Below, piece after piece: positions 8,380 to 62,724 of a stretch of DNA of 64,000 bases. This DNA is from a virus. Its lineage: Duplodnaviria; Caudoviricetes. Both the position numbers and the translations under genes were made by a program. The notes beneath the pieces were generated by a model, which worked only from the letters and a program-made list of their open reading frames with translations, had not been told where the DNA came from and searched no databases. The stretch's first letter is position 1. Each line of letters begins with the position of its first letter. Where the stretch lies: IMG/VR virus record IMGVR_UViG_3300025413_001239; one strand, written 5' to 3'.

Positions 8380-9612
8380 ATGTTAAGAGCAATTAAAATA
8401 AGACTTTACCCAAATAAAACTCAACAAAGTTATATTAATAACTTGATGGGTTGTTATCGTAAAGTATATAATCTATCTCTTAATTATAAGATAAACGAAT
8501 ATAACTTAAATGGTGAAAACGCTAATATGAAAAGTATTGGTAATCAATTTCATAATAATTGGACAAAATCAGATGATTACCAATACCTAAATAATCATAA
8601 CACAAAAGTTTTGAAACAAGCAATTATTAATATGCTTGATTCGTATAAAAGATTTTTTGTTAATGGTAATGGTTATCCTAAATTTAAATCAAAACATGAT
8701 AATAAACAATCATGCAGATTTCCATCAGAAGCAATATCTAAACGTAACGATTATTCATCATATAAACTAACACTTATATCACAATTAAAAGATATTAAAT
8801 TTAGTTGTTCTGAAGAATATTCAAAATACTTAAACAAGCATAAAGATAATATTAGGTCTGCAACATTAACCAAAAATAAATCAGGTGAGTATTATTTAAG
8901 TATCTTAATTGATGGAGATTTATTAAAATCATTAAACACACCAAGTAATCAATTTATTGGTATTGATTTAGGTATAAAGGATTTTATTATAACGTCTAAT
9001 GGGGAAAGATTTGAAAATATTAAGATAAAAAGGGGTAATGAAAAAAAGTTAGCTAGACTACATCGTAAGTTATCTAAAAAACAAAAAGGAAGCAAGAATA
9101 AAGAAAAAGCGAGAATTAAGTTAGCTAAATTTAATCATAAACTAACTAATATTAAAGAAGAATATTTACATAAGATAAGTAATCAATTATTAAACGAAAA
9201 TCAAGTTATTGTAATTGAGGACTTAAATGTGAAGGGTATGATGAAAAATCATAATTTAGCAAAATCAATACAAGAATTAAGTCTTTACAATTTTAAGAGT
9301 AAATTATTGTATAAGAGTAATTGGTATAATAGAACAATAATTGAGATAGATAGATTTTATCCTAGTTCAAAGTTATGTTCATCTTGTGGGTATAAGAATA
9401 TTGATTTAGAACTGAGTGATAGGGAATGGACTTGTCCATCATGTAAAACAAAGCATGATAGAGATTTTAATGCTTCTATTAATATTCTAAATGAGGGGGT
9501 AAGGTTATATAATAATATAATACCCATCCGTTGTGGGGAATTAACGCCTTTGGAGAGTAGTCAACAGACACTCAATGAATTAGGAAATCGGGATTTGCAT
9601 AATATTGTGTAA
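8380..9612 (+). CDS. tnpB: TnpB RNA-guided endonuclease
   Basis: N-terminal HTH (AIKIRLYPNKTQ); RuvC-I GIDLGIK, RuvC-II IEDLNVKGM, CSSCG/CPSC zinc finger, RuvC-III DRDFNASINI. Confidence 0.93.
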   Translation: MLRAIKIRLYPNKTQQSYINNLMGCYRKVYNLSLNYKINEYNLNGENANMKSIGNQFHNNWTKSDDYQYLNNHNTKVLKQAIINMLDSYKRFFVNGNGYPKFKSKHDNKQSCRFPSEAISKRNDYSSYKLTLISQLKDIKFSCSEEYSKYLNKHKDNIRSATLTKNKSGEYYLSILIDGDLLKSLNTPSNQFIGIDLGIKDFIITSNGERFENIKIKRGNEKKLARLHRKLSKKQKGSKNKEKARIKLAKFNHKLTNIKEEYLHKISNQLLNENQVIVIEDLNVKGMMKNHNLAKSIQELSLYNFKSKLLYKSNWYNRTIIEIDRFYPSSKLCSSCGYKNIDLELSDREWTCPSCKTKHDRDFNASINILNEGVRLYNNIIPIRCGELTPLESSQQTLNELGNRDLHNIV

Positions 9613-20066: not shown

Positions 20067-20368
20067 ATAAGAAAATTAATAGCTTAAAAGAAGAACCTTG
20101 GGAAACCTATTATACTAATGGTAAACTAGCCTCTAAGGGTGAATACATTAACGGCAAACATCACGGACCATACGAATCATTTTATATGAATGGTAACTTG
20201 TATTGGCAAGGCTATTTTAAAGACGGTATTTACCATGGCTTATTTAAAGTATTTTATAATAACGGACAAGTATTCTCTAAAGGTCAACACTTTAATGGTG
20301 GTAAATGTGGCATATGGGAATACTATCACGAAGATGGTCTAATAGATTATAAAGAATTTCACTTATGA
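20063..20368 (+). CDS. MORN-like micro-protein 21
   Basis: YYTNGKL...FYMNGNL...FYNNGQV...KEFHL. Confidence 0.8.
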   Translation: MNKKINSLKEEPWETYYTNGKLASKGEYINGKHHGPYESFYMNGNLYWQGYFKDGIYHGLFKVFYNNGQVFSKGQHFNGGKCGIWEYYHEDGLIDYKEFHL

Positions 20369-20383
20369 TGTTTAACGAACTTA

Positions 20384-20523
20384 TGTGCCGTAGGCCAGAT
20401 GTCCAACGGACGAGTGTGCCGTAGGCCAGATGTCCAACGGACTTGTGTGCCATCGCCATGAAGGCTCTGGACGAGTGTGCCGTAGGCCAGATGTCCAACG
20501 GACGAGTGTACACAAAAGTGTTC
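20384..20523 (+). repeat. Tandem 30-31 bp GC-rich hairpin units ending in a GTACAC-N4-GTGTWC palindrome
   Basis: GTGTGCCGTAGGCCAGATGTCCAACGGACGA x3 plus one variant unit. Confidence 0.9.
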
Positions 20524-20881
20524 ATGAAATTAGAAGTTATGGATAAATATAACAACATAAGACTCTTATTGTAAAAATTACTTAAAATTCCTTAAATTTA
20601 ATTCTATGTGTTCTTAAGTGTACCTAAAACAACCCGTTTACATTATTTGAGTTTTTTTTTGAATTTTTGGTAAAATGTGGTAAAAAGTGGGTAAATGTGG
20701 TAAAATCCAGACGTAAAAAACGGAAAATGGGGTTTTTAAGGCATTTTAAAGAGTTTTTTAAAATATAGCATTTTAGCCATTTTTGAAAAATCATTTTATA
20801 CCACCCACTAAAAATATTTTTTTTCGATATATTACAGGAAATTTTTATACGTCTATATACAGGGCATAAAACCGCTTTTAT

Positions 20882-20970
20882 ATACACAAAAGTGTACATG
20901 AAGTCCAGAGCCTTCATGGCGATGGTACACTCGTCCGTATGTCCTCGTGACTACGGTACATAAAGTCCAC
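20882..20970 (-). repeat. Inverted partner of the 20384 repeat block
   Basis: Reverse complement contains GTGTACCATCGCCATGAAGGCTCTGGAC and the palindrome. Confidence 0.85.
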
Positions 20971-20983
20971 ACACAAGCCTGAA

Positions 20984-20999
20984 TGTTCCACGTGAAACA
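20984..20999. promoter_or_regulatory. parS: Canonical parS centromere site
   Basis: TGTTCCACGTGAAACA matches the TGTTNCACGTGAAACA consensus. Confidence 0.8.
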
Positions 21000-21089
21000 T
21001 AAGATTTTGGCCAGGTTTTTACGGTACCCTTAAAGCTTAAATTTTTCATGTTCAGCCTTAAGAATTGTACCTGAGTACTTGTGGTTTAA

Positions 21090-21353
21090 TTAAACAGTTA
21101 TTTGCGCACTGGATGCGTCATATTTAATTGAACCATATTTACTGTACTGAATTCCAGATTTAAATTCAGGTTCCTTTAACCTAAGAAATTTGTATGCGTC
21201 CCATAGGGCCTTTTTAGCTTCTCTTTTTGTTTTAAATGTTATTGTGTATCCATAGAAGTTATTTCTAGTTGTTACAGAATTATGTGTTTGGATTGCTCTA
21301 CAAAGGGTACTGTTTCCGTTTATTTGACCCGTAATGTTAATAGTTGTTATCAT
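21090..21353 (-). CDS. Hypothetical protein, divergently transcribed
   Basis: ORF facing away from the early block. Confidence 0.65.
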   Translation of the reverse strand: MITTINITGQINGNSTLCRAIQTHNSVTTRNNFYGYTITFKTKREAKKALWDAYKFLRLKEPEFKSGIQYSKYGSIKYDASSAQITV

Positions 21354-21549
21354 ATATAAGTTATTTGATGAGCGGCAAAAGTATATGTATGTAAGTCACC
21401 GTAAAAGATGAATTTGGTTATGTGGTAATCTACTAGTATATTTGCAGTAGTTAAGTGGTTAATTGTTAAGGGTTTACATATAAATAAAATAAAAAAAGTT
21501 TTTGCCATATCAAAAAATACCCTTATCTTTGCATTCTAAATTAACAATT

Positions 21550-22323
21550 ATGGTATTAGAAAATGTTCAAAGTAAAAAAGTTATTAAAACAAGTTATGTT
21601 CGTGGTAAGTATCCTTTATTAACTCAAAACAATTACAAAACAATTAAGGGTGAAAAGTTGGGCATCAAAACACTTATATTGTATCTAAGTCCTTATAAGG
21701 ATAATAGTAAGGGTAAAAACTTATGTCCCAAGGCTAGTTTAGGTTGTAGCAAAGCTTGTTTATTTAATAGTGGTATGGGTGGTATGTATGAGCAAGTTGC
21801 TAATGGTAGACGTAATAAAACAGAATGGTTTCTCGAAGATAGGGAAAGTTTTGTTGGTACGCTTATTGTTGAGATTGCGAAAGCGGTAAAAAAGTATAGT
21901 GCTGATTGGCATTTGAGTATTCGCTTAAATGGTACTAGTGATATTGTTTGGGAAAACATTTATTATGGTGGTAAGAATATTTTCGAGCATTTTCCTGATG
22001 TAGATTTTTATGACTATACTAAAATTAGTAGTAGATTCAAAAAACAACTACCAAAAAATTACCACTTAACTTTTTCAAGGAGTGAAGAAAACGAAAGTGA
22101 AGCTTTAAGCTTATTGCGTAAGGGTTTCAATGTGGCTGCCGTATTCTTAAAAAAACCAACACATTACAAAGGGTTTAAGGTAGTTGATGGCGATTTATCT
22201 GATAACCGTATTGGTGACGAAAAGGGTGTAATTGTAGGTTTATCCTATAAGAACGCTACAGGTAAAAATGGTGGTGAATTAAACCAATATGCGAAGACTA
22301 GTGGGTTTGTAATATTTATTTAA
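21550..22323 (+). CDS. GP88-family radical-SAM-like phage protein (start moved to ATG 21550)
   Basis: CPKASLGCSKAC, IRLNGTSDI, FYDYTK, YHLTFS and DGDLSD motifs. Confidence 0.75.
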   Translation: MVLENVQSKKVIKTSYVRGKYPLLTQNNYKTIKGEKLGIKTLILYLSPYKDNSKGKNLCPKASLGCSKACLFNSGMGGMYEQVANGRRNKTEWFLEDRESFVGTLIVEIAKAVKKYSADWHLSIRLNGTSDIVWENIYYGGKNIFEHFPDVDFYDYTKISSRFKKQLPKNYHLTFSRSEENESEALSLLRKGFNVAAVFLKKPTHYKGFKVVDGDLSDNRIGDEKGVIVGLSYKNATGKNGGELNQYAKTSGFVIFI

Positions 22324-25589: not shown

Positions 25590-25655
25590 ATGTACACAAA
25601 AGTGTACTATACGTCACGAGGACGTTCGGACGAGTGTACTATACGTCACGAGGGC
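25590..25655 (+). repeat. Palindrome plus hairpin-unit repeat (same family as 20384)
   Basis: GTACACAAAAGTGTAC, then GTGTACTATACGTCACGAGG twice. Confidence 0.85.
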
Positions 25656-31962: not shown

Positions 31963-32097
31963 AGTGTTCTTTATTATAAATATATTAAAACATAAGAAAA
32001 AGTCAAGAAAAAAATAAGAATTTTAAAAAATAAATTTGGCGGTATAAAAAATAGCCGTACATTTGCATCATTATTAACAATTTAAAGATTTAAAAAA

Positions 32098-32922
32098 ATG
32101 GAACAAGTATTAGAAATTAAGGAGTTTACAAAAGACCTTTTAGGTGACACAGCCACTGTAAGGGCTAATTCAACTAGGGGTGAAGAAGTTATTAAAATTG
32201 CACTTGACAAAATTGTTGTTAGGGATAATTTTAACGTTAGGCAAAATTATGGTAACTTGGAAGAATTAGCTTACTCAATGATTGAGAATGGTCAAGTAAT
32301 GCCTGGTCATGTTGATGTTCTTGCCGATGGTCGTTTCGTTTTAACTGATGGACACAGAAGGTTTAAAGCCTTAAAACTATTGGCTGAAATGGGTCACGAA
32401 CCTTTATTTAAGGCGATTGTGAACCCTAAAAAAATGACAGAAGAGCAAAGGATTCTTCAAGTATTTACTACGCAAGATAACAAGCCTTTAGAACCAAACG
32501 AAGTTGCGGAACTAATTAACCGTTTAATTAATTTGGGGTACAAACAAACCGATGTTGCGAAACGTATTGGGCGTACAGGTGCATACGTTTCACAGATGCT
32601 TAACTATGTTACTGAAAGTCCTTTGATTAAAGAAGAAGTTAAAGAAGGCAATATTACAGTTGCAGCTGTTTTGGATTTGCAAAAGAAGATACCCAATAAA
32701 GAAGAAAGGGTTAAGGCAGTTAAGGATGCTGTTGCAAAGAAAAAAGAAGAAACGAAAGACGATAAGAAACCAACGCCAGTTTCAGCAAATGAAGTAATTG
32801 GTAAAAAAGATAAGGGTGCTATTGCTTTTGAGATTGTGTGTTTAATTGAACAGGCTTATAGCGAAGAACTTGAAGGTGCTGATTTGAAAATGATGGTTAG
32901 CATTATTAAGGGTTATCTTTAA
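32098..32922 (+). CDS. parB: ParB/Spo0J-like protein
   Basis: NVRQ, LEELAYSM, TDGHRRFKA CTPase motif; HTH KQTDVAKRIGRTGAYVSQML. Confidence 0.85.
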   Translation: MEQVLEIKEFTKDLLGDTATVRANSTRGEEVIKIALDKIVVRDNFNVRQNYGNLEELAYSMIENGQVMPGHVDVLADGRFVLTDGHRRFKALKLLAEMGHEPLFKAIVNPKKMTEEQRILQVFTTQDNKPLEPNEVAELINRLINLGYKQTDVAKRIGRTGAYVSQMLNYVTESPLIKEEVKEGNITVAAVLDLQKKIPNKEERVKAVKDAVAKKKEETKDDKKPTPVSANEVIGKKDKGAIAFEIVCLIEQAYSEELEGADLKMMVSIIKGYL

Positions 32923-38534: not shown

Positions 38535-38839
38535 GTACTTAACCGCTTAAAAGTAAGGGTAACAGAAATGTTACCCTTTTTTTATGCCCTTAACTATCCA
38601 TGTACACTAATGTGTACCATACGTGTGAAAATAGCCGTTTTTAGCCCATTTTGAGCCGTTTATTACCAAAATAAGGTAATCATATTAACAGCTTTATTTT
38701 AAGCCAAATTTGAGCCTTAAAATCAATTCTTTGATTACAATAAACCTATTTTTGCACAATAAAGCTATTAACTTTATTATAAGCCTATTAACTTTATTAA
38801 CCACTTAACAAAACATAAAAAAATCTTATGTTAGTAAAA

Positions 38840-39189
38840 TGTGGATAATTTTTAGATGTTAATAACTATGTGGATAAAATGTGGATAAGTACTTAGTAAC
38901 ATTTGTGGATAACTTATGTGGATAAAATGTGAATAACTTTTTTACTTATCCACATTTGTTAATAACGTATGCGGATAAAATGTGGATAACTTTTTTTGGT
39001 GGTATGAAAAAAAAGTTGTACCTTGCATCCGCATAGGCACATATATAAAAAAATAAAAGGCAGGTCGGAGTACACCTCCCGATGTCCTTTAGAACTATCG
39101 TCTTGTTATATTAACACTGCAAAGATATAGCAGCAAAATGACATGGACAAAAAAAGTTATCCACATAAGTAAAATAAAAATGTGGATAA
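38840..39189. promoter_or_regulatory. Dense DnaA-box cluster (oriC-like)
   Basis: Perfect TTATCCACA/TGTGGATAA at 38840, 38869, 38880, 38904, 38917, 38946, 38981, 39157, 39181; TGTGAATAA at 38928; near-matches at 38857, 38957, 38970. Confidence 0.88.
39045..39117 (-). ncRNA. Candidate small RNA, copy 2 (ends approximate)
   Basis: Full TTTG-N20-TATCTTTG promoter; conserved body; ends in a T-run; no ORF. Confidence 0.55.
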
Positions 39190-39276
39190 CTTTATCTTGT
39201 TTAATTAAACCAATATCAAAAATTTACCCTATCTTTGCAGTCTTATTAACCGCCGAAAGGCACTAAATTACAGATT

Positions 39277-54665: not shown

Positions 54666-55937
54666 TTATTTTTTTGATTTTGTTTTATCAGATTTGATAG
54701 CGATTTCATTCTTATCACTATCAAAGGATATTTTAATTATTTCACCTTCCTTAACGTTACCGCTTAGTATTTCATCGGCAACTTGGTCTTCAACATAGCG
54801 TTGAATAGTTCTTGCTAGTGGTCTAGCACCGTAGTTTTCATCGTAGCCTTCTTTAGCTAAGAACTCAACAGCTTCTTTTTCAATCTCAAGTTTATAACCA
54901 ACTTCTTCAAGTCTTTTTTGAACTTCAGCAACTTCATTATAAATGATTTTGTTGATATCCTCTGGCTTAAGACTATTAAACACGATTGATTCGTCAATAC
55001 GGTTTAAGAATTCTGGTTTAAATTTCTTCTTTAGAGCTTTTTCAATGATGCTACGATTTCTAGCATCTTCACCAGCGATGGTTGTTGCGGTTTCGAATCC
55101 GATTGTTTTTCCAAAGGTATTTAATTCCTTAACACCAACATTAGATGTTAATATAATTAAAGCGTTTTTGAAATTAACTTTACGGCCAAGACCATCTGTT
55201 AATTGTCCTTCATCAAATAGTTGAAGCATAATGTTAAATACGTCATCATGCGCTTTTTCGATTTCATCGAATAGAATTACACAGTGTGGTTTACGTCTAA
55301 CTTTTTCAGTTAGTTGACCACCTTGGTCGTAACCAACATAACCTGGTGGTGGACCAATTAATCGTGATACTGAGTGTTTCTCCATGTATTCACTCATATC
55401 AACCTTTATAAGTGCTTCAACGTCACCATAAACGTGCTCAGCGAGTAGTTTAGCTAAATACGTGTTATGGCTTAAGATACCATTAGTGTAATATCTTCGA
55501 TTAGAACCTTCTTTTAATTCAAGGTCATACATAACCTCCTCATAACCTAAATTAATAACCTCAATAACTTTCGATTCAATTAATTTACCATCATTATCTG
55601 ATACCATTACAAATGACCCAATTTTTAAGTCTTTAACAAATACTTCAGTTAACCCAATTGGTTCAAATGTGGTTTCATTATATTCAGTAACAAATATAAT
55701 ATGATTATCAGCACATTTTAGTTCTTTACCATCAGATAATTTAAGTTGATATACTTCGTAAGGTATTGTTTCATGTAATGCTTCTATATCAACAAATCCA
55801 TCGTCAGTTAAGACTTCGTACTCGCTAATTTTGGTTGTTTTGGTAATCTTTTTTAAAGATTCTAATTCATGTTTATCAAATAATAAAATATTATCTGACC
55901 CATCAACTCTTTTTTTAATTTCTTCTATTCTACCCAT
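54666..55937 (-). CDS. clpC: C-terminal half of split ClpC/ClpB: C-intein (158 aa) plus AAA2 domain
   Basis: LKCADNH, MYDL...NGILSHN|TYLAK; DMSEYMEKHSVSRLIGPPPGYVGY; FKPEFLNRID; YGARPL. Confidence 0.9.
   Translation of the reverse strand: MGRIEEIKKRVDGSDNILLFDKHELESLKKITKTTKISEYEVLTDDGFVDIEALHETIPYEVYQLKLSDGKELKCADNHIIFVTEYNETTFEPIGLTEVFVKDLKIGSFVMVSDNDGKLIESKVIEVINLGYEEVMYDLELKEGSNRRYYTNGILSHNTYLAKLLAEHVYGDVEALIKVDMSEYMEKHSVSRLIGPPPGYVGYDQGGQLTEKVRRKPHCVILFDEIEKAHDDVFNIMLQLFDEGQLTDGLGRKVNFKNALIILTSNVGVKELNTFGKTIGFETATTIAGEDARNRSIIEKALKKKFKPEFLNRIDESIVFNSLKPEDINKIIYNEVAEVQKRLEEVGYKLEIEKEAVEFLAKEGYDENYGARPLARTIQRYVEDQVADEILSGNVKEGEIIKISFDSDKNEIAIKSDKTKSKK
55464..55937 (-). other. C-fragment of split intein
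   Basis: Block B-like ADNH, block F YDL, block G SHN followed by Thr. Confidence 0.88.
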
Positions 55938-60300: not shown

Positions 60301-62724
60301 ATGAAAAATGGGTTAGATGAACAATATATCGAATTATTAGAGGATATATTAAAAAATGGTATTGAAAAAGAAACCAGAAATGGTAAGGTATTATCTGTTT
60401 TTGGACGTGAAATTAGATATAAATTTAAAGATGGTAAATTTCCACTTATAACTACCAAAAAAATGTACTTTAAGGGTATTGTAACTGAATTACTATGGTT
60501 CTTACAAGGACGTACTGATTTACGTTATTTACTTGAGAACGATTGTAATATTTGGACGGGAGACGCTTATAAGAGATATATTTTTAATTCAGAATGGTAT
60601 CCAATTGCTGGTTCACCTAGTGGATTTATTGGCACTAAATCTGATAGTGATGAAATAATGACACAAGGAATATTCATTGAACGTATTAAAACAGACGATG
60701 AGTTTTCAAGGACATGGGGTGATTTAGGACCTGTGTATGGGTCTGGTTGGCGTAATTGGAAGTTCACAGATAAGTTTACAAATGGAGAACAGATTACTTA
60801 TGTAAATGGAAAGGTAGACCAGATTGCAAACTTAATCGAAGACCTTAAAACAAATCCAGATTCTCGCAGACTTATGGTAAATGCGTGGAATTGTTCAGAG
60901 CTCGACCAAATGGTTTTACCACCATGCTTTACTGAAGATATGATGGTTGCATGTGTGGATGGTTATAGGAAAATATCTGAAATAACCACTAACGATTTGG
61001 TGTTAACTGAAGATTGTTCTTATCAAAAAGTTTATGAACTACATGAAACAATGTATAATGGCGATTTAATTAAATTTAAAGTATTTGGCAATACTAAATA
61101 TATAACATGCACCCCTAATCATCCGTTTTTAATTAAAGATAAAGGTTATATTAGTGCTAATGAAATAATTGAAGATGATTACTTAGCGATACCTATAAAT
61201 AGAAATTCAATTATACCGTCATTTGATACGTTGTTAAAATGCAACCAATATGGTGAAAAATTAGTAACCACAAAATTAGATAATTTTGATTATTGGTTTT
61301 TAATGGGGTATTTTATGGGAGATGGTTGGTTAATAAGTTCAAAAGAAGAGGTTTGTTTTGTAATAAATGACAACCAAACGGATTTAATACTACCTAGATT
61401 AAAAAATATAATAGGTTTAGCTAAATTAAATAATTCTGGTATTAATTGCACAAAATATGTCGGTAAGAAAAAACAAGTTTTTGAAATTTTATCTATGTTT
61501 GGAAAATATGCTGATGGCAAATTTATACCAAAATTTGTTTATGATGCGCCTAAGGAGTACATTGAACAATTTATTGAAGGTTATTTTATGGCCGATGGGT
61601 GTAAAACAAAAGACGGTATAAGTTATAGTACAGTATCTGAAAATATTGCGTATGGGGTACAATTACTATATGCAAAGTTAGGTGTTAAAGTTAGTGTATA
61701 TTTTCAAAATAGACCTAAAAAAAAGGTTATTGAGGGGCGTGAGGTAAACCAAAAAAATACATTTTCAATAAATGTATACAAACAAAAAAATAAAACAAAA
61801 AAATATATTTTAGACACCGACTATTTGTGGGTTAAAATTAAAGAAATTAATAAAATTAATTTTAATGGTTATGTTTATAATATATCGGTTGGTAACAATC
61901 ACACGTATAACGTGTACAATCTAATCAACCATAATTGTCATTATGGATTTCAATGTTATACTAGAGAATTGGGTTTGGAAGAAAGAAGAGAGATTGCTAG
62001 AAATAAATTAAATTCTATAGAATGGGGTGATGTTATTAAATTAGCTCATTACAATGAGACTTATGATAAGTATAATATACCAACCAGAGCATTATCATTG
62101 AAATGGAATCAACGTTCAGTTGATACACCATTAGGTTTGCCATTTAATATAGCATCTTATGGTCTATTGTTAGAGATACTTGCAAAAGAAGTTAACATGG
62201 TACCAGATGAATTGATTGGTGGTCTTGGTGATTGTCATATTTACTTAAACCAAATTGAAGGTGTTAAAGAACAGATTGGAAGAGAATATACAGTTGAAGA
62301 GGGTTTACCTAAAACGATTAAATTAATAGGTTACGGTAAAGAATTGGAATTTTCATTGACAGATAAAAGAGAAATAGAATATTATGGTAAAACCGAAGGT
62401 AGCAATGAAACTTTGTGGAGAACTGAAAAATTTAAAGATAATGAAGTATTCTACCAGACAGAATTTGGATGGGGTGTTTTTCTAAATACTGACACTTTTG
62501 AAACTGTCACATACGATGGAACTGAATGGGGTGGTCAAAAAATAAACATCTCTAAGAGAACTCGTGAACCGTTTCCGTTACCAAGACTTAAGCACATGAA
62601 AACTGATGCTTTCTATAAGTCATTATCTGAAGACCAATCGTTGTATGGACATTTAGATAATAAAGATTTTCAAATTGAGAATTATCAATCACATCCGTCA
62701 ATTAAATTTCCGTTAAGTAACTAA
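60301..62724 (+). CDS. thyA: Thymidylate synthase with cis-intein
   Basis: FPLITTKK, ELLWFLQG, LGPVYG, PDSRR, LPP|C, QRSVD...PFNIASY, GDCHIY. Confidence 0.95.
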   Translation: MKNGLDEQYIELLEDILKNGIEKETRNGKVLSVFGREIRYKFKDGKFPLITTKKMYFKGIVTELLWFLQGRTDLRYLLENDCNIWTGDAYKRYIFNSEWYPIAGSPSGFIGTKSDSDEIMTQGIFIERIKTDDEFSRTWGDLGPVYGSGWRNWKFTDKFTNGEQITYVNGKVDQIANLIEDLKTNPDSRRLMVNAWNCSELDQMVLPPCFTEDMMVACVDGYRKISEITTNDLVLTEDCSYQKVYELHETMYNGDLIKFKVFGNTKYITCTPNHPFLIKDKGYISANEIIEDDYLAIPINRNSIIPSFDTLLKCNQYGEKLVTTKLDNFDYWFLMGYFMGDGWLISSKEEVCFVINDNQTDLILPRLKNIIGLAKLNNSGINCTKYVGKKKQVFEILSMFGKYADGKFIPKFVYDAPKEYIEQFIEGYFMADGCKTKDGISYSTVSENIAYGVQLLYAKLGVKVSVYFQNRPKKKVIEGREVNQKNTFSINVYKQKNKTKKYILDTDYLWVKIKEINKINFNGYVYNISVGNNHTYNVYNLINHNCHYGFQCYTRELGLEERREIARNKLNSIEWGDVIKLAHYNETYDKYNIPTRALSLKWNQRSVDTPLGLPFNIASYGLLLEILAKEVNMVPDELIGGLGDCHIYLNQIEGVKEQIGREYTVEEGLPKTIKLIGYGKELEFSLTDKREIEYYGKTEGSNETLWRTEKFKDNEVFYQTEFGWGVFLNTDTFETVTYDGTEWGGQKINISKRTREPFPLPRLKHMKTDAFYKSLSEDQSLYGHLDNKDFQIENYQSHPSIKFPLSN
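60925..61935 (+). mobile_element. LAGLIDADG intein (337 aa) in thyA
   Basis: CFTED...TPNHPF...GYFMGDG / GYFMADG...VYNISV...NHN|C. Confidence 0.92.

Follow-up and report, generated by a model that had tools for sequence, protein, structure and literature searches.

A bacterial centromere site, parS, is present in exact canonical form at positions 20984–20999 of the 64,000-nucleotide stretch of viral DNA analysed here (referred to below as the window). Its sequence is that of the parS found in Bacteroidota, the likely host phylum, and canonical copies recur between genes in related phages that carry a ParB/KorB-like gene. The explanation we put first, and to which we give an even chance, is that the site would be a loading site for the ParB of the host, as in phage phi29. 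The occurrence of host-type parS on a virulent phage is already known from phi29. What is new is the lineage (uncultured T4-like jumbo phages of non-sporulating Bacteroidota-type hosts), the pairing of parS with DnaA boxes in cassettes and the presence of a ParB/KorB-like clamp in the same genome.

The parS site and its surroundings

The sequence-only reading had reported a canonical parS and an extended form of it, placed in an intergenic region right next to an inverted repeat block. Both forms were confirmed from the window letters: the 16-mer TGTTCCACGTGAAACA is identical to the chromosomal consensus TGTTNCACGTGAAACA at all 16 positions, and A...T flanks extend it to an 18-bp near-palindrome (20983–21000) in the context ...gcctgaATGTTCCACGTGAAACATaagatt... 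The reported location also holds, as the site lies outside every plausible gene and only 23 bp separate it from the end of the right repeat arm. The gap that contains the site is non-coding and repeat-rich and is situated between gene blocks. The last MORN-repeat gene ends at 20368, and from there to 22323 the following features were delineated:

20377–20509, plus strand: three direct GC-rich units of ~31 nt each, forming the left arm of the inverted-repeat block (repeat family D1, inverted pairs I1–I3)
20560–20880, no strand: AT-rich non-coding core between the repeat arms (repeat family D2; no ORF with a homologue there)
20883–20896, no strand: 14-bp palindrome TACACAAAAGTGTA, one of the dispersed GTACAC-N4-GTGTAC palindromes
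20903–20960, minus strand: inverted copies of the GC-rich units, forming the right arm (pair I1, 58 nt, 81% complementary)
20984–20999, plus strand (match strand): exact canonical parS (16/16 against the consensus)
21090–21353, minus strand: possible 87-aa gene with its stop facing parS (no known family)
21413–21444, plus strand: Bacteroidota-type promoter (TTTG-N-TAnnTTTG) of the GP88-like gene at 21502–22323 (promoter pattern scan)

Extra copies of the GC-rich unit are found near 25603 and 31023, and the AT-rich core includes overlapping TGGTAAAA-type repeats with 10-bp spacing at 20668–20705. GTACAC-N4-GTGTAC palindromes occur in the window at 20883–20896, 25592, 30033 and 38602; the family is present in the close relatives L347, L350, L370 and L003 and absent from the G209 subclade, and it may serve as a private binding site of a phage-encoded protein. 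Neither Pfam nor PHROG matched the 87-aa ORF, and among the loci compared it had no homologue. There is no DnaA box or promoter directly beside the parS of the window. The terminator scan made no call at parS and found no T-run after the palindrome, and no Rfam RNA family was matched at the site.

The number of sites to be expected by chance was computed from base composition (GC 31%, both strands) and amounts to 1.1e-4 exact 16-mers for the window and 2.6e-4 for the record. Position 20984–20999 is the sole match in the window at up to two mismatches. The genome-wide scan that had been suggested together with the sequence-only reading likewise returned this one match at up to one mismatch across the whole 148,708-bp record. 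Very large scans yield chance 16-mers, so a lone site is no proof of function; the exact 16-mer is present in at least 119 IMG/VR stretches.

The phage and its likely host

The record comprises 148,708 bp and was estimated by CheckV to be 44% complete, and the virus is therefore a jumbo phage. The terminase gene of a related, syntenic contig indicates a T4-like backbone. The T4-type large terminase shares only ~30% identity with its counterparts in cultured phages. The region had no match among cultured phages in DNA searches run in near and distant modes, and protein searches revealed no close cultured relative. An IS605-type OrfB/TnpB (Cas12f-like) gene resides inside the phage early region (window 8380–9612), and a ClpB-like AAA gene and thymidylate synthase contain intein-type (Hint or LAGLIDADG) insertions (window 54666–55937 and 60301–62724).

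Promoters of the pattern TTTG-N17-21-TAnnTTTG are abundant in the window (39 vs 5.3 expected) and nearly all of them are located 5' of plus-strand genes. This TTTG/TAnnTTTG promoter, which we take to be the housekeeping type of Bacteroidota, points to a Bacteroidota-type host. The exact TGTTNCACGTGAAACA was found in 101 of 151 sampled Bacteroidota genomes, usually in 1–3 copies, and the reversed control pattern had 0 matches in the 151 genomes; a lake Flavobacterium genome carries the identical 16-mer. The phage site thus equals the centromere of the likely host phylum and, since the consensus is identical, the host ParB should recognise the phage parS. The ParB proteins of Flavobacterium and Chryseobacterium have the canonical parS-reading residues, GK(K/D)RS..N and GHGR. 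With the window region 20900–21100 the host genomes share only a core of 20–30 bp and no flank, and capture of host DNA was ruled out on this ground.

parS sites in related phages

For this region the closest contig is G001 (160 kb), which shares synteny with the window from before the window's start to 23300. At the homologous place G001 has neither a parS nor any nucleotide similarity to the gap. No ParB-like gene was found in its assembled part, and as the contig stops before the ParB region, G001 cannot settle the co-occurrence of gene and site. On the 276-kb contig of P0002, only 7.5 kb is present upstream of the ParB gene, so that the place homologous to 20984 is not covered.

Relatives collected by their terminase (50 contigs, ~2.2 Mb) include none with a ParB-like gene. 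Exact parS occurs in them solely inside terL of three near-identical contigs (L007 6641–6656, also G005 and G052), where it falls in the variable linker NVSRGTG. The genome of the window reads ADVKGSG at this place and has no site, and the terL copy was therefore judged to be coding-driven or due to chance. Intergenic parS is absent from these 2.2 Mb. A scan of viral contigs for the ParB-like gene with the single protein gave no match; alignment-based scans recovered ParB-like neighbourhoods in other metagenomes, with 81 homologous proteins that are mostly 50–80% identical.

Several of these neighbourhoods contain parS. L347, with a ParB-like protein 80% identical to that of the window phage, has the perfect site TGTTTCACGTGAAACA; L350 (69%) has a perfect parS and, 29 bp away, another with two mismatches; and L348 (73%) has a parS-like site with two mismatches. 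In the more distant G209 (50%) there are five sites in 4.5 kb, 7–12 kb upstream of the gene, and L380 and L387 are near-identical to G209 at the sites and show the same pattern. L377 carries a one-mismatch site ~190 bp upstream of its ParB-like gene. All the sites in the relatives lie within ~12 kb of the ParB-like gene, and all those inspected are located between plausible genes, at non-homologous places, and overlapped just by short opposite-strand ORFs. In 398 kb of non-redundant DNA from ParB-like-bearing relatives there are 5 exact sites vs 0.0007 expected and 9 at up to one mismatch vs 0.038 expected, with 0 matches to the reversed control. About half of the ParB-like-bearing loci have no parS within the DNA available, and a complete 51.6-kb phage with a member of the ParB-like family has none at up to two mismatches.

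Conservation in relatives, which had been proposed as a check on the site, was thus observed in one sense and not in the other: the homologous place in G001 is without a site, whereas the ParB-like-bearing relatives have canonical parS in other intergenic gaps. Among the G209 sites the 16-mer is kept at 15–16 of 16 positions while the spacers to the flanking inverted arms (TTTTGGCAGT) differ freely, a pattern that marks the site itself as the target of selection. Judged from such comparisons, the parS sites are under selection in the related phages. Because sites recur in the relatives, and because the 16-mer is kept while the spacers vary, we regard the window copy as a member of a selected site family whose own position is unconserved. 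A search for perfect palindromes found no second motif common to both subclades.

DnaA boxes and cassette exchange

The window contains 15 perfect DnaA boxes vs 0.8 expected. In L347, L348 and L350 a perfect DnaA box is found within ~15 bp of parS, and in G209 each of the five parS sites is followed 60–90 bp later by one or two perfect DnaA boxes. One feature of the window relates the two types of sites to each other:

38840–38989, no strand: array of perfect DnaA boxes in the slot where L347 and L350 carry parS (alignment)

The window slot 38535–39276 aligns well with L350 18570–19159, and the two parS of L350 correspond to extra DnaA boxes in the window. This replacement indicates that the two site types share one cassette slot and have been exchanged over time.

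The five cassettes of G209 (G209:C1:46142-50717; L400–L404) are built as TTTTGGCAGT-spacer-parS-spacer-ACTGCCAAAA, after which the DnaA boxes follow. Their arms resemble the -33 part (TTTGGnGGTA) of the promoters of this clade, so parS may sit where the -7 element would be.

The ParB/KorB-like protein

The gene of the protein in question is preceded by a promoter at 32035–32065:

32098–32922, plus strand: ParB/KorB-like protein of 274 aa with a GHRR motif and the helix-turn-helix GRTGAYVSQML (profile matches and predicted fold)

The protein matches HTH_ParB and KorB, ParB_N only weakly, and in addition PHROG families annotated as ParB-like partition protein, and it can be aligned with the structures of Spo0J, KorB and Noc. 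The predicted model (pLDDT 89.9) has its best fold matches among the Noc, KorB and ParB clamps (8qa9, 8qa8, 7nfu), and the phage family keeps DGHRRfkA, that is, the GxRR nucleotide motif.

The recognition helix resembles that of KorB (GKSPAFITQHV). In Caulobacter ParB parS is contacted by Q162, G170, K171, S172, R173, N178, G201 and R204, with R173 reading guanine 1 (PMC7383237). The phage family keeps the first four of these eight contacts; R173 is changed to G, P or D and N178 mostly to Q, and the GHxR stretch is absent, so that the equivalents of R173, N178, G201 and R204 are missing. The helix also varies among the relatives (TG, TP, VSQ, VYQ), while the site stays canonical; in the family member of the complete 51.6-kb phage it reads GKSRSYVDQ. 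The N-terminus of ParB carries the ParA-binding motif LG(R/K)GL (PMC12704722). Host ParB has LGRGL there and the phage family LG(N/D)(R/T). Neither PF13614 nor PF01656, used to look for ParA, had a match in the 148.7-kb record, which is 44% complete. From these features we argue that the ParB/KorB-like protein probably does not read parS canonically.

Comparison with known systems

The closest parallel is phi29. PMC2731898 describes five parS sites bound by host Spo0J, together with Spo0A boxes, and refers to Meijer et al. (2005) for the binding of host Spo0J/ParB to host-type parS in phi29 (and Nf). According to the same paper and PMC9437464, Spo0J carries the phage genome into the spore and the Spo0A boxes restrain the lytic programme. 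Both phi29 and the window phage are lytic-type phages with copies of the host chromosomal parS and not plasmid-prophages, and both have, at early promoters, sites for a second host DNA-binding master protein, which is Spo0A in phi29 and DnaA in the window phage. On the other hand, phi29 is a 19-kb podovirus of a spore former, whereas the window phage is a T4-like jumbo phage of non-sporulating hosts. The pay-off in phi29 is entrapment of the genome in the spore; with hosts that do not form spores, it cannot simply be transferred. The number of parS is five in phi29, one in the window phage and one to five in its relatives. To our knowledge phi29 encodes no ParB. The window phage differs in having its own ParB/KorB-like protein, the reading residues of which are non-canonical.

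The chromosomal ParABS systems of Bacteroidota and other bacteria (TGTTNCACGTGAAACA, ParB-CTP clamp, SMC loading) use a 16-mer identical to that of the phage, and the mechanism of site recognition should therefore be the same. Unlike in these systems, the phage site is not beside parAB or a cellular oriC, no ParA was found on the record and the replicon is a virus. KorB/OB of plasmid RK2 (PDB 8qa8, 8qa9, 1r71) resembles the phage protein in fold and in the pattern of the recognition helix. Other KorB-like traits are the lack of a ParA partner for the phage protein and the location of the relatives' sites beside promoters. In contrast, the OB operator of RK2 is a different palindrome, and no KorA-like partner was identified in the phage. 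Centromere-like sites and a ParB-family protein on a phage are also known from P1 (ParAB-parS) and N15 (SopAB-sopC). The P1 and N15 systems have private sites unlike those of the host, and each has its own ParA. The site of the window phage is, in contrast, host-type, no ParA was found in its 148.7-kb record (44% complete), and its ParB-like protein is without LG(R/K)GL.

Possible readers of the site

If the host ParB is the reader, phage DNA entering a Bacteroidota-type cell would be bound by chromosomal ParB, which would nucleate at 20984–20999, form a closed CTP clamp and spread into the adjoining early region. Nucleation, CTP closure and spreading are proposed on the basis of established ParB biology. 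By analogy with phi29, the phage genome would then be tied to the segregation or organisation machinery of the host (ParA, possibly SMC), and the infecting genome might be placed or inherited while lytic growth is held back. The host DnaA boxes at early promoters would serve as growth-state sensors, the role of the Spo0A boxes in phi29. As a variant, bound ParB could act as a promoter-proximal regulator (repression); alternative outcomes are that SMC is loaded or that host ParB is titrated by phage DNA as it replicates. Positioning or condensation of the phage DNA through host ParB/SMC, or competition with the host centromere, as proposed in the sequence-only reading, would be possible consequences. 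The host ParB is favoured as the reader because the phage protein is without four of the eight canonical contacts, without LG(R/K)GL and, in the 148.7-kb record, without a ParA, and because its helix varies while the site is constant.

The main alternative, possible but tentative, is that the ParB/KorB-like clamp of the phage (32098–32922) itself loads on the site or uses it as an operator. The protein would be a private CTP-switch regulator acting on sites that equal or copy the host centromere, and it may also occupy the parS of the host or be in competition with host ParB. Across the relatives, whose ParB-like proteins are only 50–80% identical, gene and sites show tight linkage, and the 2.2 Mb without the gene hold no intergenic parS. 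This linkage is confounded, since both gene and sites belong to the early region that is driven by host-type promoters. In L377 the parS-like site occupies the promoter region of the ParB-like gene, as an autoregulatory operator would, and the sites of L347 and L350 adjoin promoters, as KorB operators do. In fold and in its GxRR motif the protein belongs with the clamp family, Noc, KorB and ParB being the best matches, and parS has no competitor among the perfect palindromes as a motif common to both subclades. Against loading by this protein speaks the KorB-like helix, which is without four of the eight parS contacts including R173 and GHxR, as does its variation among relatives whose site remains canonical. 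Nor does the site always accompany the family: it is missing from the complete 51.6-kb phage, the helix of which differs, though, and several other loci have no site within 10 kb. The host ParB and the phage protein need not exclude each other as readers.

A wider interpretation, which we consider doubtful as a whole, is that the early region imitates a bacterial origin. Repeated intergenic cassettes would pair landing sites for host ParB and DnaA, either of which could take the place of the other in a given slot, and the KorB-like clamp may share or contest the sites. A virulent giant phage would in this manner sense the replication state of the host and park its genome as a silent, actively segregated episome in non-sporulating Bacteroidota.

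It is improbable that the window copy is functionless, either as a 16-mer that arose by chance or as the decaying remnant left behind by site turnover. The copy is single, is absent from the syntenic interval of G001 and, unlike the sites of the relatives, has no adjoining promoter or DnaA box; exact parS has also arisen inside terL of the three near-identical relatives, and the many IMG/VR stretches with the 16-mer fit chance occurrence too. However, chance predicts 2.6e-4 sites per record and even fewer for non-coding DNA; in the relatives the site family exceeds expectation more than a hundredfold, with no control matches, and the copy is perfect, with no decay. Highly improbable is a role of the palindrome as an RNA or DNA hairpin (terminator or processing site) or an origin as captured host DNA: the site is palindromic, intergenic and beside other hairpin-forming repeats, but it is without T-run, terminator call or RNA family, the exact host consensus, which diverged phages carry at places that are not homologous, is nothing that a hairpin would require, and the match to host genomes stops at the core.

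If the host ParB does load on the site, centromere borrowing would be a recurrent strategy and not a peculiarity of phi29 and spore formers, and it would reach giant T4-like phages of abundant freshwater Bacteroidota. The mutable 16-bp site would then be a handle on the persistence of lytic phages (carrier state, lytic deferment) in hosts that grow slowly. The pairing of parS with DnaA boxes, next to a clamp with a different reading helix, offers a test case for the cross-talk of CTP clamps on a shared site. If the early region does imitate an origin, the phi29 strategy would exist in a general form that does not depend on sporulation.

Other parS-bearing contigs

Exact parS is also found in a set of contigs of ~7–12 kb from the IMG/VR sample 3300045988 (L041, L062, L063, L073, L012, L027, L049 and L081). 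In these the sites occur mostly as pairs 42 bp apart, ~300–750 bp from the contig end. L041 and L062 carry one parS pair per end, the two pairs being inverted relative to each other; in L063 and L073, too, both ends have sites. The contigs look like small elements with centromere sites in terminal inverted repeats. Finally, L059 (IMGVR_UViG_3300037518_000322, 116 kb, GC 65%) has eleven exact parS, the eight listed positions of which span ~4 kb, and it may represent a plasmid-like or chromosomal centromere array.
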